Virus genome (UHGV): UHGV-0112704
Strand: one strand, 5' to 3'
DNA length: 38,905 nucleotides
Origin: a virus
The notes below the pieces were generated by a model. The model made no database searches. It was given only the letters and a program-made list of their open reading frames with translations, and was not told the DNA's origin. Below, in pieces: positions 2,707-37,771 of the stretch; the first letter of the stretch is position 1; each line of letters begins with the position of its first letter. Position numbers and translations under genes: made by a program.

Positions 2707-3320
2707 GAGATCTCCGTGACAATACCGTTGGTAACTGTGATTGTTTTCCCGTCATCGCTTCGAAATGAACCAGACACCCCAGACTTACCGCCTGTCTTTA
2801 CCTGGGAATATTGAAGTACATTCAGAACATCGCATTCTTCCAGAGTCGTCTTACCATCTTTCTGGGTAATATTTCCTGTGAGGTTTAAATCACCCTCGTG
2901 GTCAGAATCCCCCTTCATCATCCTGTTCTTCTTAGGGATATTGATCGCGGTAGCCTGTGGGTTAACCCCACACAGAGCGAAGCCATCTGAATAATCGTGC
3001 ATACGCATTTCAAGTGGTGAAACAAAGTCGCTACCCGCATACCAAGCGTCATAACAACGCTCAGAGATAAGGACGAGGCAATAGTCACCAGCCGCAATTG
3101 GTTCGGCGATATAACTATCACCGCCTTGCAAAATTACCGGGGGGACTTCAATGAACTCTGGGAGTTGCTTGCTGCTCCCTTTCACAACCCGATTGATAAC
3201 GGGGACGCAACTGATTGTTTTGTCATTTACAGACGTTATTTTTGCGACAACAATGGTGTGAACATCGGCCAGAGCAAATTCAACACCCAGGCCGATAGTG
3301 TCGTGAAGTTCTTCGATCAT
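2703..3320 (-). CDS. baseplate assembly protein V / central spike (Mu gp45-like)
   Basis: 205 aa ORF; position and size typical of gpV-type spike proteins. Confidence 0.5.
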   Translation of the reverse strand: MIEELHDTIGLGVEFALADVHTIVVAKITSVNDKTISCVPVINRVVKGSSKQLPEFIEVPPVILQGGDSYIAEPIAAGDYCLVLISERCYDAWYAGSDFVSPLEMRMHDYSDGFALCGVNPQATAINIPKKNRMMKGDSDHEGDLNLTGNITQKDGKTTLEECDVLNVLQYSQVKTGGKSGVSGSFRSDDGKTITVTNGIVTEIS

Positions 3321-3435
3321 AAATTAAGCCCATAAAAAACCGCCAGAGTGGGTTCAATGGATGGCTAGATAAATACTCATACTAATCGCCGTAGAGCGAA
3401 CCTGCGCCAGCGTTTAATACTAAGGAGAGTCACTC

Positions 3436-3969
3436 ATGGGATTCAAATTCAGACAGCGCATCAAAATTGCACCAGGCATTCATATAAACATAGGTAAAAC
3501 AGGCATTACTAGCGCATCAATTGGTAAGGCTGGTGCTACCCTGAACGTTGGTAAAAAAGGGGTAAAGGCAACCGCAGGCATTCCCGGTACCGGTTTGTCT
3601 TACACGAGTGGAAACTTGCTCGCGGGTCAAAAGAGCTCCACCGGTAAACACGCTGAGAACGTAGAGGAACAAGCACCTGAGCGGCTTGGTTTCTTTTCGG
3701 ACTCAACGTTGTTAGAGGATGGTCAGGAAGATATTCAACCACCTCGCCCATTGGTCATGGTATTAACCCATAAGCAATTTAGAAAACTATCAACCGAGGA
3801 GAAAACGGCATTTAAAAATGCAGGTGGTAAGGTGAAGTTTTCAATAGGCGAGAAAATTTTTATTCTCACAGTCATTATTTTTGCTCTTGGCTGGCTTTCA
3901 GATCGTCACCCACCAGAAAAAACCAATTCCAGCGTAACGCAAGAAGTAAAATCTTCAGTTAACAACTGA
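3436..3969 (+). CDS. DUF4236-family protein with C-terminal transmembrane segment (moron)
   Basis: 177 aa; N-terminus MGFKFRQRIKIAPGIHINIGKTGITSASIGKAGATLNVGKKG...GTGLSYTSG matches my recollection of the DUF4236 signature; C-terminal hydrophobic stretch IFILTVIIFALGWL; AAGGAG Shine-Dalgarno before the ATG; opposite orientation to the surrounding tail genes. Confidence 0.55.
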   Translation: MGFKFRQRIKIAPGIHINIGKTGITSASIGKAGATLNVGKKGVKATAGIPGTGLSYTSGNLLAGQKSSTGKHAENVEEQAPERLGFFSDSTLLEDGQEDIQPPRPLVMVLTHKQFRKLSTEEKTAFKNAGGKVKFSIGEKIFILTVIIFALGWLSDRHPPEKTNSSVTQEVKSSVNN

Positions 3970-4902
3970 GTAATTTCCGGCAGGCTGGCATACCACCTTC
4001 TGATACCAGGCTGCCCCGTTGTTCTGCCCGCTGGTTTCAATCTGGTATATCTTATAAACCCCGTTTAACGCGGGGTTCGTCACGCTTTCAACAGCGCAAA
4101 GCCCACCGATCACCAGCATAGGATTCAGTTTCGTATCGAATACGATCTGCCCTTTCGAGGATTTGGCTAAGGTACTCGAGTCAGTATCTTTTTTGCCTGC
4201 CGGATCCGTATCAGGCTCATTGGTTGGCATCTTGGCTTTCTTCCCCCCGTCATCCTGTGCGCTAATCTTCGTTGCCTGAGGCGTATTTAGCAGACCGCTA
4301 CGCGCATTCACGACTGGAATGTTACCCGATGTAACCTCATTAGCCTTGAGGATGTGGACGCGCTCATCTTTGATGAAAAATGACTCGTCGGACGCAAGGG
4401 TATCGGTAAGAATTTTACTGGAGCTACCTACCAGAACCTTCGGCCTGATGAGTGCTTGTTGCTTCGTCACAGAGCCTTTTTTCGTGTTTGGCATATCCTG
4501 CAAGACAGAATCGACGACCTGATCTTTCCCGCGTACCGTGCGCGATGTGAAAGCGTTGATATAGTCGTGGCCACCGTCTTCACATTCCAGGCTGACGATG
4601 TGGATCGCCCCCTCACGCTTTACTGCTCCGCTTTTAACCGAACCCTGAAATACCTGGCGCAGCTTGCCGTCGTAACCAACCTCGAGTCGAACGGGGATAT
4701 ACTTCTCTTCATCTTCGGACTTGAGCAATTGCAGACGCGTGGAAGGCTTTAGCCCGTTGATGGACACACTCAGCTTGCCGAGTGACTTCTTGTCCACAGT
4801 TTCCAGCGCCTTGAATGACACGGTGATCGGTGGCTCGATAATCACTGCTTGATTGCCGATCCCCACCGTCAGCCGATAATCACGGTAAAAAGTATCCATC
4901 AC
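3955..4902 (-). CDS. tail/baseplate hub protein (Mu gp44-like position)
   Basis: 315 aa ORF in the baseplate block; assignment by position only. Confidence 0.35.
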   Translation of the reverse strand: MMDTFYRDYRLTVGIGNQAVIIEPPITVSFKALETVDKKSLGKLSVSINGLKPSTRLQLLKSEDEEKYIPVRLEVGYDGKLRQVFQGSVKSGAVKREGAIHIVSLECEDGGHDYINAFTSRTVRGKDQVVDSVLQDMPNTKKGSVTKQQALIRPKVLVGSSSKILTDTLASDESFFIKDERVHILKANEVTSGNIPVVNARSGLLNTPQATKISAQDDGGKKAKMPTNEPDTDPAGKKDTDSSTLAKSSKGQIVFDTKLNPMLVIGGLCAVESVTNPALNGVYKIYQIETSGQNNGAAWYQKVVCQPAGNYSVVN

Positions 4903-5234
4903 GGCACGTCTCCCCCGCGAATATCAATCATCTCTTCCGGCGTGACCAGATACATTTCGATGCGACCACTGGCGAAGTCGTCAGCCCGATATGGGTCAAT
5001 GCCGGAATTGTCAGCGCAAAGTAACACAACGTCGAAAGGCCAGTTCTTGTGCCGAAAATGTAGCGTCCCGAGGGACAGCTTCACGCCGTCGATGTAATCA
5101 CCGTTGTACTCCACGCGCATTTTCCACATTTCAACCGTAGGCAGATAACGAATAGTGACCACAGCCTCACCACGGTCAAAAATCAGAACATGCCGCTGGA
5201 TAGGTTCGTCAGTGATGTTGGTTATCGGATCCAT
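4899..5234 (-). CDS. tail protein
   Basis: 111 aa ORF, 4 bp overlap with the downstream gene, inside the tail module. Confidence 0.35.
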   Translation of the reverse strand: MDPITNITDEPIQRHVLIFDRGEAVVTIRYLPTVEMWKMRVEYNGDYIDGVKLSLGTLHFRHKNWPFDVVLLCADNSGIDPYRADDFASGRIEMYLVTPEEMIDIRGGDVP

Positions 5235-8866: not shown

Positions 8867-10369
8867 TTATTTATTGAAATTGATGATGATATCGGCACTG
8901 TGAACAGCACCAGCATTCTTCACTGCTACCTGAACAACCGGGGATTTGCGTTCCTGCCTGTCTGCGGTTGACTGGTCTTTCAGGTCACCGGCCAGCACGT
9001 AATACCCGTTTTGCTCGATATTTCGCAGAAACATATCCCGATCCCCGAAGAAGTCAGGCAGCGTCCAGGTACCCGGATTGAACACCCCAGCCTTCACAAA
9101 CCCATGCGTGGTTTTCTCTACACAGTCCTCTAACTGATCAACGCCATAATAGGTTTGTGGGACTTTAGTCGGCGTGGTTTTAAGGAGGTTGAAGGAATCC
9201 GTCTGCACTGCGTCAACGTAGGCCATCAGGTTATAGACGTTGTCGACAAAATCATTAGCACCGCTCGACAGCACGCAGGGAACGTCTTTAATCGTGGTGT
9301 AGATGTCGAGACCTACACGCTTCGCTTTGTCGATCTCCGTCTGCTCATAACTTTCGGCCGGCACGTTCATCGTTTTGAGGTGCAAAGTGATTGCAGTGCG
9401 TTCTCCGTTGAAATTAACGGTATGCGTGCGCGCCATATAGCTAACACCAAATTTCCGGTTGCCTGTTTTGCTGTAGAGCATGCGGAAATTACTCTGGCTG
9501 GCGAGTGTTACCGCCCATGCCGGGTTAGTCGGATCAACTTCCAGAGCTGCCGAACCGGTAAATGTCTCATACACGATTACCGCGTTCGCTTTAGCCCATG
9601 AAGCGATCAACGGCACCTGCGCATCGAGAATTTTGTCGATGAAGGCCGCGCCTTTTACGTTGACCTGCGCTTTGAGTTTGCTGAGAGATTCCAGTTGTGT
9701 TTCCGGTGAAATCTCAGTTGATGCGCTACCGTTTACCAGCGAAGCGCCGGAACCCTCCGCAACCGCCAGCAGATCGCCAATAAAAGAGCCACCATCCAGC
9801 ACTGTCGGATAACCAACAACAGAGTTAGTCCCTGTCGATTTGTTGGTAATCGCTATACGGCTGCCATCAAAAACAACCGATGCAACATCTGGCGTAATTT
9901 TCGCCTGGATTTGGGCGATGACATCTGCCAGTGTCGTCGCCGTCATGCCATTAATTTCAGTCACATCGTGCTTAGTGCCGTCAATCTCAATACTGAATGA
10001 CCAGTCAGACTTCTCGCGTAACGCTGGCAGTACGACTGCCTGAGAAATCTCACCGCCACGCAGTACACCGCTGGTCGCAGGCAGCGTTTCCCCGGCAGCG
10101 TTCCAGTAACCGACGATCAGCGTGCCGCCCGCGGATACCGGGTTAGGACTGGTCCCGAAAAACACATTCGCAAAAGCTGCGGTGACTGAAGAAGCCCCCC
10201 AGTCCTGTTCGACAGCAGATGCGCTTTTGTATGAACGCCAGCGTTCAGCAGTGCTCAATACCCCCGTCTGGCTGGTCAGAATTGCGCAAACGTTGATGTT
10301 ATCTCGCGCCGCCGCCCGTCCCTCTTCGAGAAGCGTCACATTAATGACGTTATTAATTGATGCCGACAT
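8867..10369 (-). CDS. contractile tail sheath protein
   Basis: 500 aa ORF followed by the tube gene; size and order typical of myovirus-type sheath. Confidence 0.6.
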   Translation of the reverse strand: MSASINNVINVTLLEEGRAAARDNINVCAILTSQTGVLSTAERWRSYKSASAVEQDWGASSVTAAFANVFFGTSPNPVSAGGTLIVGYWNAAGETLPATSGVLRGGEISQAVVLPALREKSDWSFSIEIDGTKHDVTEINGMTATTLADVIAQIQAKITPDVASVVFDGSRIAITNKSTGTNSVVGYPTVLDGGSFIGDLLAVAEGSGASLVNGSASTEISPETQLESLSKLKAQVNVKGAAFIDKILDAQVPLIASWAKANAVIVYETFTGSAALEVDPTNPAWAVTLASQSNFRMLYSKTGNRKFGVSYMARTHTVNFNGERTAITLHLKTMNVPAESYEQTEIDKAKRVGLDIYTTIKDVPCVLSSGANDFVDNVYNLMAYVDAVQTDSFNLLKTTPTKVPQTYYGVDQLEDCVEKTTHGFVKAGVFNPGTWTLPDFFGDRDMFLRNIEQNGYYVLAGDLKDQSTADRQERKSPVVQVAVKNAGAVHSADIIINFNK

Positions 10370-10858: not shown

Positions 10859-11211
10859 GGCGTTGGCACCAGTAGCGGGAGCCGGGTTTCCTCGGCGATG
10901 ACAGCGCAGAATCCGTAATCCATAAAATCGGCCGGGGACACGACTTTGTAGTCCTTGCCTCCCTTCTCAATAAACTGACCGGTTTCAATTTTCAGCCGTG
11001 CATGAATCAGCAGATATTCTTTCGACCAGTCCAGGCTATCCAGCGTCAGATTCTCTTTGTTCGCACTTTGCACCACCGCCAGAATGTCCTGGCTGTTAAC
11101 AGTCACGACCGGTTCAAAATCGATGGTGGTTTCAGTGCGGGTTTTGAGTTTTACAGGCTGTTCCCAGCCGATTAACGCGTCGCTCATATCAAGGTCTGAT
11201 AAGTCGCTCAC
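10855..11211 (-). CDS. head-tail connector protein
   Basis: 118 aa ORF, positional. Confidence 0.3.
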   Translation of the reverse strand: MSDLSDLDMSDALIGWEQPVKLKTRTETTIDFEPVVTVNSQDILAVVQSANKENLTLDSLDWSKEYLLIHARLKIETGQFIEKGGKDYKVVSPADFMDYGFCAVIAEETRLPLLVPTP

Positions 11212-19388: not shown

Positions 19389-19949
19389 ATGAAATACTCA
19401 CAGCAAGAAAAACTACAGATCATGATGCTCAGTGATATTCACCGAGCATTAGAAATTGAAAACTCATTTGATCCTGACCTCATTGACGAAGCAGTGAGCA
19501 CGGATAACTACTGGGCTTTATCCTGGGAATACCCAGGCCTTCAAGATGAAGAAGAGGAGACCCCCTGGGAAGTCCAGCTTTTCGTTGATACCTATGATAT
19601 GTATGACATTCTCCAATACACATACGAACGATTCAGTGCGGAAGACAAAGCAGAGGTTGCCAAATCTATTCGTAATTTCGATGAGAAATTATCACTCACA
19701 TTCCCCGGATTTGACGGTAACAACGAATCAAAGTTTCTTTTGATTGGTAGTTTATTGAAACGAATGGGACGGTTTAGCGGCAAAGACGATCTCACCCGGA
19801 ACTCTCACATGCCCTCTGTTGCAATTTACCAACGTATGCTTGAAGTTTTCCTTCCTGCCAGAGCTAAGAATTGGGTTCACAATGTGGGCATTACTAAACA
19901 TGATTTTATCGATACACTCAACGCGAGAGTGCATCCAGAAAATCGTTAA
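19389..19949 (+). CDS. YfbU-family (UPF0304) protein
   Basis: 186 aa; C-terminal block YQRMLEVFLPARAKNWVHNVGITKHDFIDTLNA resembles E. coli YfbU as I recall it. AGGA before the ATG. Opposite strand to the flanking terminase and lysis genes. Confidence 0.6.
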   Translation: MKYSQQEKLQIMMLSDIHRALEIENSFDPDLIDEAVSTDNYWALSWEYPGLQDEEEETPWEVQLFVDTYDMYDILQYTYERFSAEDKAEVAKSIRNFDEKLSLTFPGFDGNNESKFLLIGSLLKRMGRFSGKDDLTRNSHMPSVAIYQRMLEVFLPARAKNWVHNVGITKHDFIDTLNARVHPENR

Positions 19950-21576: not shown

Positions 21577-22368
21577 TCAATTACCCAATGGCTTATGTAG
21601 TTTAAATGGGTTAAGTGATTCTTCATTTTTCAGGCTTATCTTTAAATTCACAGCAATCAGTGAATGATCGTCAGTTGGTCCAGCGCGCTGTATCCGCTTA
21701 AAAAGATTGGTTGAAAAGTTAGTAGCATTCTTCAATGTATTGGGAGAAAAACGCGGGCGGCGTTCCCAGAAGTGATGGGCTCCATCGGACATCAGAAAAA
21801 GAGAAACAACACCGTCATGGTCCATCAAATCTGACAGGGGTAACGAAATATGCTGAAATTTTATTGGCAGGACTTTAGAAATAGCTGCAGTAAGCATGTT
21901 CTTTCCTGGTAAGTCTTCCAATTCCCTTTTCGTATATAACCCATCGTCGAGCAACTCTTGATGCTGTGAGTGATCTTTCGTTAGTAGTTTTAATTTGTTA
22001 TCAATTTTTACATACACCCGAGTATCGCCTACATGGATTACATTAAGTAACTCACCATGTACAACACAGTAGGATAATGTTGTTGCGGCCTTGCGCTTCT
22101 CTGAATCGAACTGAGATAGTTCAGATATTTTGTCTTTTGCACCACTAAGTATCGCATCAGGATCAGAACTGGCTTTCAGTTTATGAGTTGCGACATAGTC
22201 TACTGCAGCTTGCGCTGCTTCTTTAGCACCAGCATAAGACCCGACACCATCAGCAATAGCAAAAATGAAGCCATCATCACATTGTTGCGGGAGTAGTAAC
22301 GCATCTTGGTTTTCACGACCATGATCTTTGGGGCATGAAAATGCACCACAGCTCAACAACTCAATCAT
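21577..22368 (-). CDS. PP2C-family (PPM) Ser/Thr protein phosphatase
   Basis: 263 aa; PPM motifs RENQDA, FAIADGVGSYAGA, HVGDTRVY, LMSDGAHH, TDDHS; start overlaps the kinase stop (ATGA); about 39% GC. Confidence 0.8.
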   Translation of the reverse strand: MIELLSCGAFSCPKDHGRENQDALLLPQQCDDGFIFAIADGVGSYAGAKEAAQAAVDYVATHKLKASSDPDAILSGAKDKISELSQFDSEKRKAATTLSYCVVHGELLNVIHVGDTRVYVKIDNKLKLLTKDHSQHQELLDDGLYTKRELEDLPGKNMLTAAISKVLPIKFQHISLPLSDLMDHDGVVSLFLMSDGAHHFWERRPRFSPNTLKNATNFSTNLFKRIQRAGPTDDHSLIAVNLKISLKNEESLNPFKLHKPLGN

Positions 22369-23147
22369 TTGCCTCTCCTTGCTGCAACAATATCATCAAG
22401 AATGTCTATCATCTCAGTGACAGAATCGTACCTTGAACGAGGCGTAAATGCCGCTGATTTATCGATTAATGTCGTTATACCGTCAATATGAGATAGATTC
22501 ATTTCACTAGTAATAACACCTAGCGCGTAAATATCTGATTTCTGTGTATATACTCCGCGTTTAGCCTCGTCAGACATGTACTTAGCAGTGCCAATACCCA
22601 TTTTTTTGTTTTGAAGTACACCTGACAAAAAATCAGATTGGGCTTTCGAATCCATACTTTTGATTAGGCCGAAATCGGAAATTTTGTAACAGCCTCCTTC
22701 AAACTTGAGGATATTCTCAGGTTTCAGATCCCTGTGAAGCAACCCAGCGTCATGGATATACTTAACGCCTTCAAACACCATCTTCAGGGCTAACAGCTTT
22801 TCATCATCAGAAAGAACGCCCGCTTTTAGTTCGCTTCTTAGGTCTGTTTCTGCCAACTCCATCACAAACCAAGGGTTTTCTATGCTTAAATGATGTATGC
22901 AAATTCTTACAACATGATCATGATTGCACTTGGCTTGGTAGTCGACTTCACGCTTAAACCGACGCTTCCAGTCATCTACACTAAAATATTCATTTAATAA
23001 CGCAGGATTAACTGAAAGAACTTTCCTTGCATACTCACCACAAAGATGGCTATCGGTGTTATATACCTCAACCTTTTCCACACGACCAAAAGCACCAAAA
23101 CCTAGATCTCTCAATGGTTTTATAAGGTAATTACCCCTGGGTTCCAT
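22365..23147 (-). CDS. Hanks-type (eukaryotic-like) Ser/Thr protein kinase, minimal catalytic domain
   Basis: 260 aa; glycine loop LGFGAFGRV; Lys in YARKV; catalytic loop HRDLKPENI; DFG in ISDFGL; subdomain IX-like SDIYALG. About 39% GC against about 51% in the flanking structural genes. Confidence 0.85.
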   Translation of the reverse strand: MEPRGNYLIKPLRDLGFGAFGRVEKVEVYNTDSHLCGEYARKVLSVNPALLNEYFSVDDWKRRFKREVDYQAKCNHDHVVRICIHHLSIENPWFVMELAETDLRSELKAGVLSDDEKLLALKMVFEGVKYIHDAGLLHRDLKPENILKFEGGCYKISDFGLIKSMDSKAQSDFLSGVLQNKKMGIGTAKYMSDEAKRGVYTQKSDIYALGVITSEMNLSHIDGITTLIDKSAAFTPRSRYDSVTEMIDILDDIVAARRGK

Positions 23148-25696: not shown

Positions 25697-25903
25697 TCAA
25701 CCCCACGCCCTGTTTTGCCAGACCTTACTCGGGCGCGGCGCTTTCTCGCTTTCCGGCAGCTGAACGCTGACGGTCCAGGTGATGTTGTCGCGGTTCAGGC
25801 TGCGTTCTACTGTGGCGCCACGACGGCGATAACTCGCCACCAGCTCGTTTGCCTGTTCGGTTGTGCATTCGTGATGGTGGAACCAGGAATATTTCATCGC
25901 CAT
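25697..25903 (-). CDS. small nin-region protein (68 aa)
   Basis: The ATG at 25903 overlaps the DUF1367-like stop as TGATG; the track ORF is extended upstream to 25987 within that overlap. Confidence 0.4.
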   Translation of the reverse strand: MAMKYSWFHHHECTTEQANELVASYRRRGATVERSLNRDNITWTVSVQLPESEKAPRPSKVWQNRAWG

Positions 25904-26502
25904 CACCCCGCAAAGCTCATGAGCTGCGATGCGGCGTTTTCCGCTTCTCGCTGAGTCTTGAATGCCCGGGACAATACCCAGCGCCACAGAACATCGAGCG
26001 CGGCTTTGTACAGTTGCTGGAACTCGGTTTCGTCCATGTTAGCGAAGGCAATACTGCGGGGATGTTTGCGAAGTGTTCCGTCAGGAAGCTGAATAGCGTC
26101 ATAGTGACCAGACTCGACGATCACCCAGGCGCGATAAGCATCATAGGATTTGCAGATGCTGATGCTACCGGCGCGCTTATCGGCGATGCGGTCCAGATAT
26201 TGCTCGGCAGCATCCAGCAGTGCGCCTTCGTTTCCACCAAATGCCGCGAGGAATTTAGCATAACCATTTACGAGCTTACGCTCATTGCTGGATATCGCCC
26301 CTCCAGTAGGTTCCCAGTATTCAAACCCGAGATTCAGGAGCGCAAAAAAACGGCGATGGAATGCGGGATTCCTCACCTGGCGAAATTCGGCTACCAGCAC
26401 GGCGCCGAGTTTGATTTTTGATTGCAGAATATCGCTGGTCTCCGGCGTCGCGGGGATCAGGATTCCTGATGACTGCTTGATGAGTTGTAGTTCGTGCGCC
26501 AT
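25903..26502 (-). CDS. DUF1367-like nin-region protein
   Basis: 199 aa ORF upstream of NinG; family assignment from memory of prophage nin regions. Confidence 0.45.
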   Translation of the reverse strand: MAHELQLIKQSSGILIPATPETSDILQSKIKLGAVLVAEFRQVRNPAFHRRFFALLNLGFEYWEPTGGAISSNERKLVNGYAKFLAAFGGNEGALLDAAEQYLDRIADKRAGSISICKSYDAYRAWVIVESGHYDAIQLPDGTLRKHPRSIAFANMDETEFQQLYKAALDVLWRWVLSRAFKTQREAENAASQLMSFAG

Positions 26503-26902: not shown

Positions 26903-27136
26903 CTAATAAAACCAGTCGTCAGCGCTTTCCCAGGTATCCTGGAGGATTGATTCAATTTTCTTTTTATCGTCCTTGTCACCACCAAAAACACTTAACCCAT
27001 CGGCCCCGGCACGGCGGATTGTGAGCCTGCAATTGTCATAGTGATCATTCAGGCGCTTAAGCAGTTCTTTCTCCAGTGCTGGTACTGCGCCTTTAGGAAG
27101 TTCTTTCATGCGATCAATGGTTAATTCAACTTTCAT
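26903..27136 (-). CDS. DinI-like protein
   Basis: MKVELTIDRMKELPKGAVPALEKEL...KKKIESILQDTWESADDWFY resembles E. coli DinI (…ISEILQETWESADDWF…). The ATG at 27136 has a perfect GGAGG spacing and is preferred over the track start at 27148. Confidence 0.75.
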   Translation of the reverse strand: MKVELTIDRMKELPKGAVPALEKELLKRLNDHYDNCRLTIRRAGADGLSVFGGDKDDKKKIESILQDTWESADDWFY

Positions 27137-27246
27137 AATGGCCTCCATTGCATGTACTGTGTTTTTATACAGTATACCTATGCGCGGAAATGATCAACGT
27201 TTTAAGAGCACAAATTGTCAATTTTCTGTCAGTAGTAAAAAAAGAA

Positions 27247-27264
27247 AACCCGCCGTAGCGGGTT
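27247..27264 (-). terminator. hairpin terminator upstream of the DinI-like gene
   Basis: AACCCGC-CGTA-GCGGGTT, with a U-rich tract on the minus transcript (plus-strand AAAAAAAGAAA at 27237-27247). Confidence 0.4.
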
Positions 27265-27627
27265 GAATTAGCAGTGTTATATTAAGCGGCAATTTCTTTC
27301 TGCCGGCACAATCCCGAGAGATTCGCCCTCTGTATCGCATCATCAATGAGCACCTGTATGACCATGAGGCAAAGCGTTATCCAACTTGCATTCATCTTTT
27401 TCAATCAGCAAAGGAGTGGTTAGTGCTGTGAGTGGGCTTTGTTCACTTCATGGTAGATAAATCAGCTATGGATAAGTGATAAGAGGTGAAATCAATCCGA
27501 ATTAACAACCTGAAGCACATTAATCGGAACACAGATATTAAAATCCTAAAGTCTAGTAACAAATAGCCGATATGAGATATTGCTTATCAGTTTAAAAATA
27601 ATCTATTGAAAAAATGGGGGGGAGGCG

Positions 27628-28191
27628 TTGAAGCGAGTAGAGCGCGATTTTATCTGTCTGTTTAATTGTGTGTGGTATCAAGATTTCCCTGTGTTCAAAG
27701 GTGAATATATCAACCGTTCCAACTGGACCATTCATGTTGGCCTGGTCATGCGCGAGTGTGCAAAGTTAATGGGCGCAAGAACATTTTTTGAACAAGGCGG
27801 GCGTACCGATGCGGTCCTACAATATCCAGACAATCAAATTTTAACCTATGTTGAGTGGGAGTATAATCAGGCAGACAGAGATAGCGTTAACGAGTTAGAC
27901 AAACTGCTTGAAAAAAACGACAAGTGCTATTTCTCCACATTCATCTCATATTGTCAGCATGAAAACATCAATATTGTTATTGAAAAAGCAAGTAGAATAT
28001 GGAGTGAAGCAAGCAGGCCTTTGATTTTTTTTCTTATCACCTATGAGCCTCAAACGAAAAAACGCCGCCATTTTTTAGAACTCAGAACTTATTTTTTCTC
28101 AAACGGCAAAAGAAAACTAGTTCGCAAACAACCTGCGCTTCCATGGGATATTGAGCAACGAAAATACAATGTCGAAGAAGATGCAGGATAG
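27628..28191 (+). CDS. hypothetical protein (187 aa), AT-rich moron on the opposite strand
   Basis: Track ORF starts at a TTG; an out-of-frame ATG and a G7 tract sit immediately upstream (27614-27622). About 35% GC. No recognisable motif. Confidence 0.45.
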   Translation: MKRVERDFICLFNCVWYQDFPVFKGEYINRSNWTIHVGLVMRECAKLMGARTFFEQGGRTDAVLQYPDNQILTYVEWEYNQADRDSVNELDKLLEKNDKCYFSTFISYCQHENINIVIEKASRIWSEASRPLIFFLITYEPQTKKRRHFLELRTYFFSNGKRKLVRKQPALPWDIEQRKYNVEEDAG

Positions 28192-28230
28192 AAGAGACAT
28201 AAGGTTTTCACGACAGTCTCGTTTCGAGCC

Positions 28231-28612
28231 CTAACTAAAATATTCTGTTCGGAGCAACCAAATAGCTCTGGCTTTGCTGTGACCATGTTCGCGGTACCAA
28301 CGCCTCTCTAGGTCCGCTTCTCGCTCATGGTGGACCAAAATCAAATCTAAAATGACGTGGCTAAGCGGGAGTACATAGTGAATGACAGGATGCTCCGGGC
28401 AGCACCATACTAATTCAGTTCCCGTCAGAGGTAGGCGTTGCTTCATGATGGGATGAGCGCTCCCTCCAGACAATCCATGCGACAGCCGCCTCCCATGATA
28501 TATATCCATTACCGCCATTTTTCGCTCTGCGGAGATTAACTGCATTACCAAACCTTTCAATGATGAATTTTTCAAATTCTATGCGTTTTTCTTCGTCGAT
28601 TGTTGAATCCAT
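28231..28612 (-). pseudogene. two overlapping ORF fragments, possibly one frameshift-disrupted gene
   Basis: Track ORFs 28415-28612 and 28231-28575 overlap in different frames. Confidence 0.2.
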
Positions 28613-28891
28613 ACCTTCCCCAGAAGAGTCCTACGAATCGCTCTTATTGCATAAAAAATAGCATATACAATAGAGAGTGAAAAACCGACGTAGCGGGTTA
28701 ACTTTATGTTACTCATGAGTCTTGTCTCGCTGCGACTTAAAAGCGGAACATTCTCGCGCAAGTTGCGTTGCTAAAGCTACGGGGTTGAATGGCTCTCCAT
28801 GCCCATTTAAGAAGGCATGCGGTGTGTAGTTGAACGTTATTTAAAACACAGATAGAATCAAGAAAAATCCTAAATAAATGGAATATTGTTT

Positions 28892-29272
28892 ATGGCTAAG
28901 AAAATCGCATTACTGGGCTTTTCTGCTCTTTTTGTTGCAAGTGTTGCTTTTGCTGAAACGACAAGTAACTGGGTTGAGGTTACTACAGCTGATGATGGCA
29001 TTTTTTCAGCAAAAAAAGGCACATTTAGAAATGTAAAAGGTGATTCATCTGCCTTGTTCATGTATCAAACAAAAAATAAAAAAGTAGAGTACTACAAAGT
29101 TAGTATTAAAGATGCCGACTGTGATAGTGGATATGGGGAGATAAGATTCTTCTATATGGATGGGAAATTAGCTTTCAAAGGTGATTATGTTGCTGATGGG
29201 AACAGTGTTGGCGCAGGTATTGGTGATTTTATGTGTGGGGTCAGAATTGGACTTAACACACAAAAAAGTTAA
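28892..29272 (+). CDS. secreted/periplasmic protein with cleavable signal peptide (moron)
   Basis: MAKKIALLGFSALFVASVAFA then ETT: basic n-region, hydrophobic core, AxA cleavage site, no lipobox Cys; about 35% GC. The ATG at 28892 is preferred over the TTG at 28886. Confidence 0.55.
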   Translation: MAKKIALLGFSALFVASVAFAETTSNWVEVTTADDGIFSAKKGTFRNVKGDSSALFMYQTKNKKVEYYKVSIKDADCDSGYGEIRFFYMDGKLAFKGDYVADGNSVGAGIGDFMCGVRIGLNTQKS

Positions 29273-29312
29273 ATGAGGGGCATTTGTTAAAAAACAATAG
29301 CCCCACATTAGA

Positions 29313-29514
29313 TCAATATTGGCTCCGGCATTTCTGGATAAAAGCTTCTATGCTACGGCGCTCATAGCGAACAATCTTAGCGCTGAACTTTACACGGGGC
29401 CAATGTAGACCGGTGTCGGTGTTCTGTATTCCATTTACATAATGTTTTTTGCGTAATTCCCAGCTTCTGGCATACCTCGCCCGGAGTGAGGAGATCATCA
29501 GGTTGCTCAGTCAT
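29313..29514 (-). pseudogene. AlpA/excisionase-family HTH regulator, disrupted by a frameshift
   Basis: Frame A from the ATG at 29514 reads MTEQPDDLLTPGEVCQKLGITQKTLCKWNTEH then stops at 29378. The track ORF 29313-29498 (frame B) contains the expected C-terminal part (LHWPRVKFSAKIVRYERRSIEAFIQ). The frames must join near 29414-29420. Confidence 0.45.
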
Positions 29515-29686
29515 GTTATGCCTCGCTGTTATCTGGGGTGATGATTAGCAGCTTCCAGATGGCTGAGACATACATAGCCTGATGTTTCGCATCGACTAGG
29601 GCATTATGCATGTCACCTTCAAACGGCATGTCCCGAGTTCTCCCTTTTCGCCGCTTTCGCGTCGCATATTCTCCAAACGGTATTTA

Positions 29687-30244
29687 TCAATCATTACTGT
29701 TATCCTCGCAGTAGTAGTGCCGTCCCTCTGGGTCAGTAGATACATGTCCGCAGATATCGCATTCAATTCCAGGAAGCACCGATTCTGACTGCGCTTTGAT
29801 ATGCAGTCGCGGTTCACCGTCTTTCGGCTCTGGCCACTGGCGGTTTTTGTTAACCGCCAGCTTTTCTACCATCGCCAGGGTAATCTGCTTATCACTGATA
29901 CCGGCACGACATTGCGCATCCCATAACAGGAATTGCATGTCAGCCCATTCGCTCATCTCGTCTGGTTCCGCAGCAGCCTCGATAGCTTCTTTGGAAAGGT
30001 GCTTCAGCGGACCAACTGGACCGACATCGCCGAATGTTTCATCTGACCATGCTGCATGTTCACAGCGTACCTGCTCACGGGCTATCGACTCCAGAACCCC
30101 ATCAATCACCTTCACTGCATCAGCCATTGCGTAGCCGAGATTACCGCCGTCGCTTTGTGCTGCTGCTTTGCTGAGTATTTCGCGTATCTGGTGCAAGCGA
30201 TCAAGTGATACAGGACCGTGCGCCGGGTGGTTGTTAGTTGTCAT
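29687..30244 (-). CDS. hypothetical protein, possibly MazG-like / DUF550-type
   Basis: 185 aa; acidic helical block EAIEAAAEPDEMSEWADMQFLLWD; C-terminal CDICGH...C cluster. Family assignment is weak. Confidence 0.3.
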   Translation of the reverse strand: MTTNNHPAHGPVSLDRLHQIREILSKAAAQSDGGNLGYAMADAVKVIDGVLESIAREQVRCEHAAWSDETFGDVGPVGPLKHLSKEAIEAAAEPDEMSEWADMQFLLWDAQCRAGISDKQITLAMVEKLAVNKNRQWPEPKDGEPRLHIKAQSESVLPGIECDICGHVSTDPEGRHYYCEDNSND

Positions 30245-30247
30245 GGG

Positions 30248-30448
30248 TTAGTCCTCTACCTTGTTTCCGCAATGCGGGCAGTAATTGAACTTATGGGCGA
30301 ATCCAGGATGCGGAACGGCAAAGCGTTTGGTTTTCTCGTTCCAGTCAGCAATTACGATTTCAAAATTTACGACCGCATTAGCCCAGTCACTGGAAAGAAC
30401 TGGCTGCGACCCAATCAGGCCGACTATACAGCGATTACATTTTTCCAC
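30248..30448 (-). CDS. small zinc-ribbon protein (66 aa)
   Basis: CNRC near the N-terminus and CPHC near the C-terminus. Confidence 0.35.
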   Translation of the reverse strand: MEKCNRCIVGLIGSQPVLSSDWANAVVNFEIVIADWNEKTKRFAVPHPGFAHKFNYCPHCGNKVED

Positions 30449-30452
30449 TGAC

Positions 30453-30647
30453 TCACACCCCCTTCACGCCAATGCCAGCAGTAAATCGCGACGGTGACCA
30501 ATCGCAATATGTGTTCGACTCCGTGTGTCCAAAAATTGCTTTACAACGATGGATATGGTGGCAATTACCACATGTTATGCCAGCCGGTAATCGCATCTTG
30601 TCGGGATCGGCTGGGTCATAATTCAACGCCAGTTTTTCGGTTGTCAT
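30453..30647 (-). CDS. small Cys/His-rich protein (64 aa)
   Basis: CGNCHHIHRC and YCDW motifs; coupled to neighbouring genes. Confidence 0.3.
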   Translation of the reverse strand: MTTEKLALNYDPADPDKMRLPAGITCGNCHHIHRCKAIFGHTESNTYCDWSPSRFTAGIGVKGV

Positions 30648-30982
30648 GCTGGCATCCTCCCCACGATATCTATAACCCGACGCATAACCGCACTTCCCCG
30701 AAAATCTGCTGGTAACTCAATCAGAGGCTTACTCGAACCGTATGAGAATCGTTGGAGATCGAAATCAATTACAGCCTTTGGGTCCCTGAACAAATCTAGA
30801 CGACCGTAACGAATGAGTTCGCCGCGTTCGGCTGCTACGCGGAAATACTTCTCAGCAGTCTGACGATGCAGCGACAACATCTGTGATGCCTCGCTAACGG
30901 TTAAGCGTCCACGGATTTTCACCTCTTCGATGATCACCCGGATAAGTGCCGCCTGCTCTTCTGGTGTATTTGGTCTTGGCAT
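30644..30982 (-). CDS. hypothetical protein at the lambda P/ren position
   Basis: 112 aa ORF immediately downstream of the O-like gene; too small to be a P, DnaC-like or DnaB-like protein. Confidence 0.35.
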   Translation of the reverse strand: MPRPNTPEEQAALIRVIIEEVKIRGRLTVSEASQMLSLHRQTAEKYFRVAAERGELIRYGRLDLFRDPKAVIDFDLQRFSYGSSKPLIELPADFRGSAVMRRVIDIVGRMPA

Positions 30983-30984
30983 GC

Positions 30985-31896
30985 TTACCCCCTGAATCCG
31001 GGTGGGATTGTTTTGTCTGGCTCAGAAATGCGGTTCACATCCCTGCCCGTTTTGCGAGCGTTGAGAGCGAACTTCGGTTTAAACAGTCCCTGGTACCCGT
31101 TGGCGATACTGGTGTTGATCACATCAACGGGGTCATGCCCAGCGTCCAGGCAAGCCTTGAGCAACTTGAATGCTTTGGTGACCGTCATTTCGGTCTTGAT
31201 GGCTTTGCCAGACTGTTGGCGGTAGGCCACCCACTCACTCCAGGACACAGAATCAAGCCACTCAGGAACGGGAATCGTCAGCGGGTCAAACTTACCCTTC
31301 CCCTTTGGGGGATTAGAGGGGGTTAGATCTGTATTTATATTTGTATTTGGAAGAATGTCTTTGGTGTTCCCTGTTTTCAGGGATACCTCTCCCTGTTTTT
31401 GGGGATGGTTATCCCCGTTTTCAGGGATGATTGAAGGGGTAAAATTGCTATCCCTGAATTCAGGGATGGTAATAACCCATGTGACAACTTCAGCAGCAGG
31501 AAACACCGCTGGACACTTCATGCAATTTGGCTTGGTATACGCCCATTTATCCAGGCTGGTATTAATCCCTATGTATCTGGTTTGCCCAATGCGGCGCAGG
31601 ATGATGATGTTCCGATAGGCAAGGCTCAACACGGCTTCAGAGACGTGTTTCACCTTCAGCGTCGTTTTATCTGCAATGAGGCTATTGGCGATGCGGTCAG
31701 AACTCTTAGACCAGCCATAGGTCAGACGAACGATAGCATTCAGCACCCGGAACTCGCGCCCGGATAGTTCGACGATACACAGGGCATCCTGAATCTGGTT
31801 GGCCAGGCGCAAATAGCCTTTCTCCAGTTCAGCCATGCTGCTCTCCTGTTTCCCCTGCTGTGTGGGGAATTTGAATATTTCAGCGGTATTTGACAT
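30985..31896 (-). CDS. replication initiator, lambda O-like
   Basis: MSNTAEIFKF...LRLANQ...FRVLNAIVRLTYGWSK resembles the lambda O N-terminal domain as I recall it. Iterons and an AT-rich stretch lie inside the gene. The ATG at 31896 (GGAG 7 nt upstream) is preferred over the track start at 31929. Confidence 0.8.
   Translation of the reverse strand: MSNTAEIFKFPTQQGKQESSMAELEKGYLRLANQIQDALCIVELSGREFRVLNAIVRLTYGWSKSSDRIANSLIADKTTLKVKHVSEAVLSLAYRNIIILRRIGQTRYIGINTSLDKWAYTKPNCMKCPAVFPAAEVVTWVITIPEFRDSNFTPSIIPENGDNHPQKQGEVSLKTGNTKDILPNTNINTDLTPSNPPKGKGKFDPLTIPVPEWLDSVSWSEWVAYRQQSGKAIKTEMTVTKAFKLLKACLDAGHDPVDVINTSIANGYQGLFKPKFALNARKTGRDVNRISEPDKTIPPGFRG
31368..31467. repeat. replication origin iterons (four copies) with adjacent AT-rich region 31331-31360
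   Basis: TCCCTGTTTTCAGGGAT (31368-31384), TCCCTGTTTTTGGGGAT (31390-31406), ATCCCCGTTTTCAGGGAT (31411-31428), ATCCCTGAATTCAGGGAT (31450-31467), each an inverted repeat, inside the O-like gene; AT-rich stretch GTATTTATATTTGTATTTGG on the downstream side. Confidence 0.75.
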
Positions 31897-31980
31897 ACTG
31901 TTCTCCGCAATTACGCACAGTTTTTGCACCTGAAAGCCGTTGGTGTTCGAGCACCGCGGCTTTCGCCATTTCTGAGCCCG

Positions 31981-34969: not shown

Positions 34970-35107
34970 CGTAAAACCCGCGCAAGGCGGGATTCACGTC
35001 CGGTGCCACCGACCAAAGTTACACCGGAATTTATACCAAACCAAAAAACATCCAATGGGCGCTATCTCTGGCCCGGGGATTCTAACACTCAAAAAAGAGG
35101 ATCTCAC

Positions 35108-37771
35108 ATGGAATTTTTCCATCTGATAAAAGCCAGTCAGAAGTCTGGCAAGAAAGATGCAGTGATTTGGTTCACTGCGAAAAGTGTAGCGCGCGCCAAT
35201 CTCCAACTCGATGTGGCACTGGAAGAAGCCGGAATTGAAGAAACTGGCCGCGGTAAAGATTATGCCAAACCAATCCGCACCGATTTCCCGGTATATGACG
35301 ACCTGCCGGAAGAAGGCGCAGTGGATTACACCTGGTGCAAACGCTACGAACTGCAGAACGATGACCGCACCTGGCTGCCAAAAGTCACAGCTGAAAACTC
35401 TGACGAGAAAACGGCTCAGACCGTTGATAGTCACATAACTACTGAGTCAACGCTGCCAGAAACCGCTGGCATCACGCTGGACGAACACGACGACGACTCA
35501 ACCCTCTACCCGGTAGTGCAGATGCCGTTTCGTAAGCAACTGCTTTCCCAGTTCACCGCCGACGAACTGCGCCACCACGTAACCCGCGAAGAGTACGAAG
35601 CTATCGGCGCGCTGGAGATGGACACTGATAACAGTTACGTCCAGAACTTGCTGTTAGCTGCTGAGAACTGCCCGGAAGTGAAGGGTTACGACACCAAAGA
35701 CCTGTGGCGCTACACCGATGCCATTCGCAAAGTGTTCAGCCAGGACAAGCGTCACGAACTCGCGCTGGTACTCCGTTTCACCAGAATGTGGGCGGCGACT
35801 GATTACATTGACCGTGGCATCCTGGCGCGTGAATGGGCTGCCGGTAATCACATCAGTAGTGTTCAGCGTACTGATTCCGGAACCAATGCCAACGGCGGTT
35901 ATGTCACTGACCGTGGACCTGATGCATACCATACCCTTGACACTCTCGATTTAGAGATTGCATGTGCCCTTCTGCCTATGGACTTCAACCATCTGGAAAT
36001 CCCGGGCAGCATCCACCGCCGCGCCAAGGAGATTGTCGCGAACAAAGAAGAACCATGGAAATCATGGAGCAAAATCCTGCGCAACCAGCCCGGCGTTCTG
36101 GCTGTTAACCGCGCGGCCATCTTCAACCTGGTGCGCATCGCGCCTGAGAATATCCACCTAACGCCGGTTGCTCATCTGGAGTTCGTAAACCAGACGATGA
36201 CGGCTGAATTTAATGCTGCGACTGAGTTGCTGCCTATTTATGGCAATAGCGAGCATAAGCAGGAAGTAGTTACCCAGGAAATGGTAGATGCGGCATGGCA
36301 GAAGGTTGATGAAGTGTTGGAAGAGTTTCATGGCGAGTTGAACGCCGGTGAACAAAAACGACCTGAACCTGCGCTTTCTGTTGTGGATCTGATGCGCCAG
36401 CGCGCTGCTGATGAAAGGCTTCACCCAGCAAACATTGAAGCAACCTCCACTGATAGCCAGCCTCAGGTCGCTAACCTCGGCGGCGGCATGTTCTCCATTG
36501 ATGGCCTGATGAGCGAAAAACAACCACAAACAGATGACCGTTCACCGGTTACAGAGGAGACCACCAGCGATGTGCAGATGGAAGAGACTGACCCGGCGGA
36601 AGGAGAAACTGGTAACACGGTTCCACCAGGCGAAAGCTCTGATGCAGCTGATCCGCAAACAGCTTCCCTGACCCCGGCTGAGGTTCTGGCTGCCGTGGCG
36701 CCGGAGCTGGCGAACGACTCACAGCCGGAAATGACCACCGAAGCACCGGAGGAAATCGCCAGCACGCCGGAATACCCTGCCTATTTCGAACCGGGCCGCT
36801 ATGAAGGCCTGCCGAACAACATTTACCACGCAGCGAACGGGATCAGCAGCACCCAGTTGAAAGATGCGCGCGTTAGCCTGATGTTCTATCACGGTCGCCA
36901 CGTGACCAAGACAATCCGTCGCGAGAGCAGCGAGGCGCTGACGTTCGGTAGCCTGTCTCACACGATGGCACTGGAACCGGAAAAGCTTCACGAAGAGTTC
37001 GCGGTGTTCCCGGGCGTTCCGGAGGGAGCATTTACCACTACCGACTCCATGAAGGCGTTCATCCGCGAATTTAATGCGGATAAGCCAAAGGCCGAGCAAC
37101 TGAAGCTCACAGGCAAGAAAGAGGAACTGCAGGCGGCGATCCGCGCGGTGAATCCGGATGCCATTTTCGCTGATGAGTTCGAGCAGGAATGGCGAGATAG
37201 CGTTGCCGGGAAAACCATCCTGTCCAGTGAGCAGTTGGCGCTGGCCACGGCAATTCAGCAGGCCCTGCTTAACCATGAATCGGCCGGAAAACTACTGCGC
37301 CACCCTTCCCGTTCAGTCGAAACCAGTTACTTCGGTATGGACGACGAAACTGGCCTTGAAGTCCGTGTACGCCCGGACCTTGAGGTTGAAATAAACGGCG
37401 TTCGTATCGGCGTTGACCTGAAAACGATCAGCATGGGCCGCGTTAAGCAGGAAGGCCTGCGCGCCAAGCTGCACCGGGAAATCATCGACCGCGATTACCA
37501 CCTCAGCGCGGGCATGTACTGCAGCGTCGCTGACTTTGATCAGTTCTTCTGGATCTTCGTTAACAAAGACGAGGGTTACCACTGGGTTGCGGTCATTGAG
37601 GCTTCGGAGGAACTGCTGGCGCTTGGCCGAGAGGAATATCAGAAAACCATGCGCGCCCTGGCTAAGGCTTATGACACCAACTGCTGGCCTGCGCCGATCA
37701 CCGAAGACTACACCGACGAACTGAACGACTTCGACCTGCGCCGCCTTGAAGCGCTGCGTACTCAGGCATAA
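35108..37771 (+). CDS. recE: exodeoxyribonuclease VIII (RecE-like)
   Basis: 887 aa from the ATG at 35108 (AAGAGGA upstream); blocks TDFPVYDDLPEEGAVDYTWCKRYEL and DYIDRGILAREWAAGNHISSVQRTDSGTNANGGYVTDRG resemble E. coli RecE as I recall it; acidic Pro/Glu-rich linker; C-terminal nuclease-like domain; followed by an annealing-protein gene. Confidence 0.7.
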   Translation: MEFFHLIKASQKSGKKDAVIWFTAKSVARANLQLDVALEEAGIEETGRGKDYAKPIRTDFPVYDDLPEEGAVDYTWCKRYELQNDDRTWLPKVTAENSDEKTAQTVDSHITTESTLPETAGITLDEHDDDSTLYPVVQMPFRKQLLSQFTADELRHHVTREEYEAIGALEMDTDNSYVQNLLLAAENCPEVKGYDTKDLWRYTDAIRKVFSQDKRHELALVLRFTRMWAATDYIDRGILAREWAAGNHISSVQRTDSGTNANGGYVTDRGPDAYHTLDTLDLEIACALLPMDFNHLEIPGSIHRRAKEIVANKEEPWKSWSKILRNQPGVLAVNRAAIFNLVRIAPENIHLTPVAHLEFVNQTMTAEFNAATELLPIYGNSEHKQEVVTQEMVDAAWQKVDEVLEEFHGELNAGEQKRPEPALSVVDLMRQRAADERLHPANIEATSTDSQPQVANLGGGMFSIDGLMSEKQPQTDDRSPVTEETTSDVQMEETDPAEGETGNTVPPGESSDAADPQTASLTPAEVLAAVAPELANDSQPEMTTEAPEEIASTPEYPAYFEPGRYEGLPNNIYHAANGISSTQLKDARVSLMFYHGRHVTKTIRRESSEALTFGSLSHTMALEPEKLHEEFAVFPGVPEGAFTTTDSMKAFIREFNADKPKAEQLKLTGKKEELQAAIRAVNPDAIFADEFEQEWRDSVAGKTILSSEQLALATAIQQALLNHESAGKLLRHPSRSVETSYFGMDDETGLEVRVRPDLEVEINGVRIGVDLKTISMGRVKQEGLRAKLHREIIDRDYHLSAGMYCSVADFDQFFWIFVNKDEGYHWVAVIEASEELLALGREEYQKTMRALAKAYDTNCWPAPITEDYTDELNDFDLRRLEALRTQA

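Follow-up and report, generated by a model that had tools for sequence, protein, structure and literature searches.

An AT-rich stretch of a lambdoid prophage as a probable patchwork at a cargo hot spot, joined at short structured sequences

Why should 2.5 kb of AT-rich DNA, with genes on the opposite strand and broken genes among them, interrupt the early operon of a lambdoid prophage? The stretch lies at 27149–29686 of UHGV virus genome UHGV-0112704, a lambdoid prophage with its early-right operon on the minus strand; its full 38,905 nt are here called the window. A sequence-only reading of the window had taken the stretch for a secondarily acquired cargo island or the remnant of a small integrated element. 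We find that it is, with a probability of roughly 0.8, a patchwork that has built up at a cargo hot spot of a lambdoid prophage resembling Rac, Qin and mEp237, with its pieces joined at structured linkers and two imported genes of the moron kind among them. Alignments show at least four pieces, namely mEp237-like backbone, Pantoea-like chromosome, an orf65 cassette as found in other prophages, and int-xis-exo DNA from one end of a Citrobacter-type prophage. By the same alignments each piece has its own closest relatives and its own breakpoint, and every junction cut short earlier content, leaving a Dcm stub, an integrase stub, an exonuclease stub, a frameshifted xis-like gene and a decayed terminator. 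Three of the breakpoints are seen to coincide with short structured sequences: a terminator (T), an A-type half palindrome and a B-type palindrome. Coordinates of all features are collected in Table 1.

Composition, rarity and origins of the pieces

The AT-richness that had been claimed was borne out. GC content is 0.415 in the stretch against 0.502 in the whole window, of which this is the most AT-rich 2.5 kb; among windows of 2538 bp only 1.2% have a GC content as low, each of them overlapping the stretch. Composition is not uniform either by sliding GC or by GC at third codon positions (GC3), the latter being 0.40 in the 187-aa gene (orf187) and 0.27 in the 126-aa gene (orf126), against 0.50–0.63 in backbone genes; total GC is 0.40 and 0.37 for these two genes and 0.50 for the window. 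Low GC is not confined to the stretch, a further patch lying at about 21.3–23.5 kb.

The whole stretch is present in 3 of 5426 complete E. coli genomes and in seven IMG/VR contigs, and the dinI/ninB flank occurs in many more E. coli genomes. Related prophages do not conserve the same gene content and carry other DNA at the same position, a slot between the replication, DUF977 and DUF550 genes on one side and the terminator-led dinI cassette on the other. Beyond the breakpoint mEp237 has a small open reading frame (ORF) and a DNA methyltransferase gene; WEM25 has a Dcm pseudogene alone before gene P, and ET881 a Dcm stub with ImmA/IrrE, DUF550 and Ead/Ea22-like genes. Secondary acquisition is thus upheld by rarity, by the different DNA that relatives hold at this position, by foreign composition, by the change of orientation and by gene decay. 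Lambdoid nin regions do hold AT-rich intergenic DNA, terminators and small ORFs, and the window has other low-GC patches, as would suit a stretch that is old, native to the phage lineage and AT-rich for regulatory or intergenic reasons; yet its flanks are common where it is rare, its pieces are 86–94% identical to DNA in unrelated contexts, and five of its genes are truncated or frameshifted. Such a native origin is hardly credible and, on these comparative data, already refuted.

The first piece is backbone. The dinI side is 97–98% identical to phage mEp237 as far as 27303, and mEp237 and about 50 E. coli prophages match at 91–98% only up to 27303–27330. At this edge stands the end of a C5-cytosine DNA methyltransferase (Dcm) gene in a nested truncation, with 55 and 32 codons left in relatives and 14 in the window. 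After a further 96 bp (27327–27422) comes the second piece, a captured segment made up of orf187, about 200 bp before it and 145 bp after it. The third (28312–28705) matches orf65-bearing prophages at 83–92% and is separated by 35 bp (28706–28740) from the integrase stub that opens the fourth, whose identity to the int/orf126/xis/exo end of Citrobacter prophages is 93.6% over 28742–29635.

A search with the 126-aa protein led to these Citrobacter prophages (L014–L017), integrated beside acpS. They carry, in order, an integrase (465 aa, plus strand), orf126 (plus strand) and, on the minus strand, a 66-aa HTH_17 gene, a 190-aa Rv2179c-like exonuclease and a 280-aa gene, followed by Ead/Ea22 and further genes. 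Against their intact HTH_17 gene the frameshifted AlpA-type regulator described from the sequence is just that, with one extra base at 29395. Its N-terminal ORF matches phrog_4745 (E 7e-13) and, weakly, PF12728 and TIGR01764, and the intact homologue has PF12728; of the marks of an excisionase or AlpA protein it shows the HTH_17/MerR-like domain and lacks an intact frame beside an integrase. The exonuclease stub is a pseudogene in RefSeq, and its homology to the 190-aa gene of L014 ends at 29635. The frame of the integrase stub was derived by hand from the sequence.

These remnants bear directly on the proposal that one small integrative element, with integrase, excisionase and cargo, entered the nin region and has since decayed. 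In its favour, 28741–29514 brings together the 3′ stub of an integrase, a xis/AlpA-like gene and a cargo gene, and in Klebsiella and E. coli relatives of orf126 are found near tRNA-Thr, in small islets with an integrase or resolvase. However, the closest match is the int-proximal end of a full-size lambdoid prophage, and the alignment has the int/xis material colinear with the early-left end of that prophage, through the exonuclease and into the start of the next gene, past the edge of the stretch (30097–30245); a small element is therefore disfavoured as the source. The left 1.4 kb has two other, unrelated origins, only 15 integrase codons are left, and a search for short direct repeats at the edges returned chance-level short repeats only. 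We consider a single decayed element very improbable, and a patchwork of at least four pieces fits the separate breakpoints.

Mosaicism continues into the right flank. Positions 30097–30245, which hold the 5′ end of the DUF550 gene, share 95% identity with L014 7896–8044, the 5′ end of the 280-aa gene after the exonuclease, and 29796–30254 is 90% identical to a slot gene of E. coli ET881; within 29636–29795 there is only a weak match to an EaA gene at 29738–29795 (81%). About 50 N-terminal codons of the DUF550 gene are common to the otherwise different 280-aa Citrobacter prophage gene, and this shared module could be a homology patch for recombination.

The two hairpins picked out by eye, at 27247–27264 and as a degenerate copy near 28683, are also genuine. 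The first (T1) is a good minus-strand intrinsic terminator; the second (T2) is a true repeat that has lost its folding, 28679–28704 being identical to 27244–27269 at 22 of 26 positions, and the window has no other copy. In a mismatch-tolerant search each locus in related prophages had one to three copies of the 20-mer AACCCGCTACGGCGGGTTTT, without exception on the operon strand and immediately before a small gene, which was dinI, orf65 or orf85 (an 85-aa secreted cysteine-rich peptide). Because the 20-mer precedes each small gene in relatives, the hairpins are copies of the terminator with which such cassettes begin; they are not what is left of an element. T2 is intact at the same position in relatives, and backbone homology ends at 28699–28706. 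The window holds the dinI and orf65 cassettes in tandem with the upstream terminator copy decayed; in L073–L081 the order is Dcm 3′ end, hairpin, orf65 and ninB, so that the terminator and orf65 stand where terminator, dinI and orf82 stand here. A third terminator-led mini-cassette is found at about 2700–2877 in L068–L072 and is duplicated in L071 (4040–4214); its product is an 85-aa precursor of a small secreted cysteine-rich peptide (...ANKPCSGKKGGISHCSGEKFVCNDGSISKSKKVCQK).

The orf65 product is 44–47% identical to the C-terminal half of YfdT/SfV orf28, the last early-left gene ahead of xis, and matches phrog_660 (E 1e-4); PADLOC and NCBIfam gave nothing for it. Blastn of 28300–28760 against GenBank phages found no match, and the origin of this piece came from the IMG/VR scan only. 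What had been described here as a pair of overlapping ORF fragments does overlap on the minus strand, but fragments they are not: one is the intact, conserved orf65, and the other, a 114-aa ORF, is almost certainly spurious, since it spans the 28336/28337 junction and has no homologues. It has no family match in Pfam, PHROGs, PADLOC or NCBIfam.

Palindromes at the cargo borders

Several features had escaped the sequence-only reading: the exonuclease, integrase and Dcm stubs, the stem-loop at 29272–29309, and palindromes of a 24-nt type at 28312–28335 and 27424–27438. The palindromes form a family, GTCCGCT-N10-AGCGGAC, with two loop classes, A (yTGTGCCArn) and B (nnTCGCTCAw). At the left junction backbone homology (L068, L071) ends at 27426 and Pantoea-like homology begins at 27423, and all that the L068 and L071 backbones share there with the Pantoea-like L018 is GTGCCAnnAGCGGAC. 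Backbone and Pantoea-like homologies overlap on the 15-nt A remnant and, at the right junction, exactly on the B palindrome (28312–28336). In Pantoea orf187 is bracketed likewise, by ..TCCGCTCTGTGCCATAAGCGGAC on the left and by GTCCATTTTTTGCTCATAGTGGAC on the right, with GTCCGCTCTGTGCCAGTAGCGGAC following 14 nt later; outside the palindromes the Pantoea flanks have nothing in common with the phages.

Other prophages fill the same slot differently. In L070 and L072 an arsRBC operon stands between the same two junction points as the orf187 segment here, and in L068 (3370–4098) and L071 (3370–3750) the slot holds a different 126-aa ORF (MDMTLFEECK...), accompanied in L068 by a further palindrome (3806–3829) and a stop-interrupted IS3-family orfA remnant (3907–4030). 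The arsR-arsB-arsC genes of L070 (3345–5437) and L072, identified from translations, lie on the opposite strand directly after the B palindrome.

We then looked for the palindromes across IMG/VR, which yielded at least 131 sites, 76 of 131 falling in the A or B loop class; by a hand estimate from the fixed loop positions, chance would give well under 1% of sites per class. Around A sites the upstream side is conserved (13 clusters among 55) and the downstream side diverse (32 among 53), and B sites show the reverse. Pairwise homology between Rac/Qin-like prophages stops at the last base of A (at most 8 nt beyond it in L213 pairs) and resumes 0–9 nt from the first base of B, with 0.5–5 kb of unrelated cargo between. 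These prophages have A just after the DUF977 gene and B just before sok/hokD. In at least three unrelated backbones the alignments place the cargo borders exactly at the palindromes. Together with its left flank, the A element occurs, unannotated, in 2241 of 5426 E. coli genomes (41%) at 1–4 copies each, and the examples inspected were in prophages. Rfam scans of the island and the palindrome loci found no palindrome family, the only real matches being sok and a tRNA, and a literature search for the motif found nothing relevant. In the Qin prophage of E. coli K-12 (L215), a degenerate A-type copy (GTCCGCTTTGTGCCAGGAGCAGCC, 9982–10005) and a B-like copy (TTCCGCTTCTTGCTCTTAGCGGAC, 10973–10996) bracket flxA, facing against the Qin early operon and so inverted in the way seen in the window.

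How might such borders arise? In the patchwork account, prophages sharing a cell would have recombined repeatedly with one another and with the chromosome, building up the slot content, with short conserved hairpin or palindrome linkers serving as crossover points. The route could be short-homology recombination or some site-specific activity; the phage carries a RecE-type recombinase gene (35003–37771), with no RecT partner identified. A dedicated system is the more specific proposal: the orf187 segment, and slot cargo generally, would be moved by site-specific recombination at A and B as heterospecific sites, a natural recombinase-mediated cassette exchange. Two loop classes on identical 7-bp inverted arms, a constant orientation of A(+)...B(+), nucleotide-exact breakpoints between prophages with unrelated cargo, B–A doublets resembling empty or joined sites, and the presence of these sites around the gene in a chromosome that otherwise has no sequence in common with the phages would all suit it. 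On the other side, no recombinase is associated with the sites, their 7+10+7 geometry is atypical of known tyrosine and serine recombinase core sites, much of the A/B conservation is due to shared backbone (two large flank clusters), and the A copy of the window is only a half-site. Moreover, 24 nt is near the minimum for RecA- or RecET-type homologous exchange, which gives the same pattern. Dedicated exchange is accordingly an unlikely account of the movement. Its fullest form is more doubtful again: an unrecognised cassette-exchange system shuttling single- or few-gene cargo between lambdoid prophages and chromosomes, with the orf187 segment as one such cassette, bearing a new family of solitary BamHI-fold anti-phage nucleases.

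To our knowledge, nut/boxA-boxB, put RNA, attC, dif/pdif and IS200/IS605 ends do not fit the palindromes in sequence or geometry. Integron cassettes with attC, pdif modules, and repetitive extragenic palindromes or bacterial interspersed mosaic elements (REP/BIME) likewise have short imperfect palindromes at exact cassette borders and doublets where borders meet. Unlike attC and pdif, the present palindromes have no GTTRRRY core, no 11-6-11 Xer layout and no linked integrase; and whereas REP/BIME number hundreds per genome, the A-type element has 1–4 copies per E. coli genome.

Morons and mosaic variability of the nin region are ordinary in lambdoid phages (HK97, HK022, lambda), which show the same foreign extra genes in their own, often antisense, transcription units, with sharp breakpoints and gene stubs. 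This locus departs from such known mosaicism on two counts: three junctions fall on repeated structured sequences, and the palindromes among these also flank the cargo gene in a bacterial chromosome. A related process would be the relaxed homologous recombination that De Paepe et al. (2014, PMC3945230) report for temperate phages and defective prophages. A second parallel is with the anti-phage hot spots reported by Rousset et al. (2022, PMC9122126) for P2-like phages and P4-like satellites, which likewise have a fixed position, conserved flanking genes and highly variable cargo. Unlike those, our slot is in a lambdoid phage, runs from replication/DUF977 to dinI/ninB or hokD, and holds PADLOC-negative cargo together with gene debris.

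Lambdoid mosaicism with morons is already known; what is new here is the palindrome-bounded cassettes and two unannotated protein families. Gain of phage cargo, be it defence, virulence or resistance, is usually ascribed to unspecified "illegitimate recombination", and the breakpoints here can be read to the nucleotide and lie at short structured sequences that can be used again. The palindrome-delimited slot is found in about 40% of E. coli genomes; its contents vary, with toxin-antitoxin-like genes, hydrolase genes and an arsenic-resistance operon among them. If the palindromes are active recombination targets, they would offer a simple rule for locating prophage cargo as well as an exchange mechanism.

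The two plus-strand genes

Both plus-strand genes noted from the sequence are real, with conserved full-length homologues. They are absent from close relatives at the same position and differ from the backbone in composition, as morons do. In the patchwork account they would be the only intact imports, oriented against the repressed early operon, with hairpins to insulate them, and would behave as morons expressible in the lysogen. Their two unannotated families comprise a solitary BamHI-fold protein, as modelled, ranging from Proteobacteria to Dehalococcoidia, and an enterobacterial periplasmic protein, as predicted, that occurs beside recombinase genes.

The structure model of orf187 is confident and matches nuclease folds, including the core fold of restriction endonucleases as predicted. 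D61 lies at the start of modelled strand 2 and the ExE motif in strand 3, and E55, D61 and E76-W-E78 are invariant across phyla. The family (members of about 186 aa) comprises 34 clusters at 90% identity and 183 at 50%, with homologues at 95% identity in Pantoea, 50–60% in Pseudomonas and 31–37% in Dehalococcoidia/Chloroflexota and one Bathyarchaeia metagenome-assembled genome (MAG). Neither orf187 nor distant members of its family had a Pfam match at E<0.1, a profile search of PDB sequences found none, and PADLOC and NCBIfam returned nothing. The predicted fold resembles the type II enzymes BamHI, BglII, BstYI and OkrAI and the defence nucleases NucC and HamA, without a Pfam or PDB sequence match to them. 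Unlike type II restriction-modification, the cyclic oligonucleotide-based antiphage signalling system (CBASS) and Hachiman, orf187 has no adjacent partner, and its assignment as a nuclease comes from the predicted fold. A literature search on "BamHI-like" prophage defence found nothing relevant.

No methyltransferase, CBASS or Hachiman partner adjoined orf187 in any context seen, where neighbours were metabolic or regulatory; its conserved neighbours in 31 loci were antisense shadow ORFs only, and for want of a conserved neighbour there we gave up both a partner methyltransferase and a two-gene system. From the model, orf187 most likely cleaves DNA with Mg2+ as a nuclease of the BamHI/BglII/BstYI structural type. 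Since a methyltransferase partner never accompanies it, it would have to be restrained otherwise, by dependence on modification, by structure specificity or by activation. Its predicted role is most likely protection of the lysogen from other phages or foreign DNA.

A number of observations weigh against the overall account. PADLOC had no match for orf187, a promoter scan found no promoter-like site upstream of it, and its homologues are stable, syntenic single genes in Pseudomonas chromosomes, outside recognisable defence islands; a housekeeping or repair role is possible. Transfer between phage and Pantoea may have gone in either direction. The IMG/VR palindrome scan required perfect stems and covered at least 120 loci, those chromosomal and prophage palindromes that were folded make only weak hairpins (z -0.7 to -3.6), and the A copy in the window is a degenerate half-site. 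For orf126, likeness to protein E is remote (3% identity) and the fold simple.

Some of these points suit a different reading of orf187, as a chromosomal housekeeping or repair protein, or a catalytically different protein of PD-(D/E)xK fold, that hitch-hiked into the phage and is neutral there. The gene is solitary and syntenic in Pseudomonas species groups and stands beside metabolic genes in Dehalococcoidia, it lacks PADLOC matches, and it is phage cargo in this prophage lineage only. But in 10 of the 11 host loci checked its AT content exceeds that of the DNA around it, its distribution across distant phyla is patchy, its Pantoea copy is bracketed by the palindromes that bound prophage cargo, and it is intact here while five neighbouring genes decayed. 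We hold the hitch-hiker reading to be a substantial possibility, somewhat short of even odds.

A few further observations concern orf187. "Viral" contigs with distant homologues (L088, L090–L092) were set aside as phage cargo, their context being host flank or chromosome. Interrupted homologues in Pseudomonas sp. GM84 (L040 5001–5560, six stop codons) and a Dehalococcoidia MAG (L054 1098–1652, one stop codon) suggest occasional pseudogenisation. In the 1950-aa protein P0135, 15 separate stretches match positions 44–80 of the orf187 profile; it may be a repeat protein built from the E/D-motif segment, or an artefact. A P4-like element (integrase, AlpA, Ash, primase) lies at 464–4063 of the Pantoea-like L019, about 4 kb from orf187, and L018 has a tRNA gene at the corresponding place (4995–5068), so the chromosomal gene stands beside an integration hot spot. 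The B palindrome downstream of orf187 has no U-run.

orf126 has a signal peptide of the signal-peptidase-I type ending ...SVAFA|ETTS (AFA|E) and conserved cysteines. No lipobox was found, there being no cysteine before residue 77, and the protein would be soluble in the periplasm, not a surface lipoprotein. The model has an antiparallel sheet with a packing C-terminal helix, as in the protein E family. Haemophilus influenzae protein E ("surface-adhesin protein E") has a similar fold, at 3–13% identity; orf126 differs from it in having no Pfam match and no lipobox. A profile search of PDB sequences, PADLOC and NCBIfam gave no match either. Relatives of orf126 lie recurrently beside recombinase genes at element edges, and the promoter-like site ahead of it is about 97% conserved with the Citrobacter prophage. 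The protein is most likely exported to act on the envelope, with a predicted role in phage exclusion or in surface or host interaction.

Coordinates, flanks and other parts of the window

Table 1. Features of the stretch and its flanks, with positions in the window
Feature	Position	Strand	Basis
dinI, left flank of slot	26903–27148	-	PF06183 DinI, E 4e-26
Putative LexA box TACTG-N10-CAGTA, dinI promoter region	27155–27174	.	Read from sequence; within mEp237-like backbone
T1 terminator hairpin, AACCCGCTACGGCGGGTT then U-run, heads dinI cassette	27247–27264	-	Terminator scan; free energy (dG) -12.8 kcal/mol, z -4.6
Dcm stub, 3′ end, about 14 codons	27285–27326	-	Translation ...RANLSGLCRQKEIAA and stop, vs ...RANLPELCQQKQIAA and stop of relatives' annotated Dcm pseudogenes
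Captured segment	27423–28336	+	blastn: 86% to Pantoea-like chromosomal L018/L019/L020, 83% to Pantoea wallisii L023; GC 0.406
A-type palindrome, degenerate half, GTGCTGTGAGTGGGC (15 nt), left junction	27424–27438	+	Three-way alignment
orf187, intact, solitary protein of predicted BamHI-like PD-(D/E)xK fold	27628–28191	+	Structure model, conserved homologues
114-aa ORF, judged spurious	28231–28575	-	Straddles 28336/28337 junction between pieces of different origin
B-type palindrome GTCCGCTTCTCGCTCATGGTGGAC, right junction	28312–28335	+	Pantoea-like homology ends 28336; backbone homology (L068/L070/L071/L072) starts 28312–28313
orf65, intact 65-aa gene, weakly YfdT/SfV-orf28-like	28415–28612	-	Full-length homologues 80–98% in 21 IMG/VR loci
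T2, decayed T1 copy heading orf65 cassette	28680–28699	-	22/26 identical to T1; dG -1.8, z +0.9
Tyrosine integrase 3′ stub, 15 codons and stop	28741–28788	+	KRNILAQVALLKLRG and stop, aligned to ERSILAQVALLRRRS and stop ending 465-aa integrase of Citrobacter prophage loci
Putative sigma-70-like promoter TTGAAC-17-TAGAAT ahead of orf126	28830–28858	+	Promoter scan; consensus match
orf126, intact 126-aa predicted secreted/periplasmic protein, protein-E-like fold	28892–29272	+	Structure model, signal peptide
Strong stem-loop between convergent orf126 and xis-like genes	29272–29309	.	dG -16.5 / -17.1 kcal/mol by strand, z about -5
xis/AlpA-like helix-turn-helix gene, +1 frameshift, extra base 29395	29313–29514	-	Alignment to intact 66-aa HTH_17 gene of L014
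Rv2179c-like 3′-5′ exonuclease 3′ stub, 37–39 codons	29516–29629	-	PF16473 profile positions 153–177 of 177
DUF550/dATP-dGTP pyrophosphohydrolase-like gene, mosaic right flank	29687–30244	-	PF04447, E 4e-40

The phage is of the Rac/Qin/mEp237-like lambdoid type. The early-right operon runs from a YdaT-type cII-like gene through the replication gene (30985–31929), DUF977 (30644–30982) and two small ORFs to DUF550; after the AT-rich stretch come dinI, an 82-aa ORF, ninB (25903–26502), rusA, Q and the lysis genes. This order agrees with the RefSeq annotation of a near-identical prophage in E. coli PSJ-22. The motif at 27155–27174, which we take to be a LexA box by the E. coli SOS-box consensus, puts the dinI cassette under predicted SOS control.

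Elsewhere in the window, a second low-GC patch (about 0.40–0.43) between Q and the lysis genes (21577–23147, minus strand) has a gene for a Ser/Thr protein kinase (PF00069, E 3e-32) and, after it, one for a PP2C phosphatase (PF13672, E 6e-15), a pair that resembles prophage kinase exclusion systems such as 933W Stk. A short patch of low GC (0.41) amid the minus-strand late genes holds a YfbU-domain gene (PF03887) on the plus strand (19389–19949), which looks like another opposite-strand insert.

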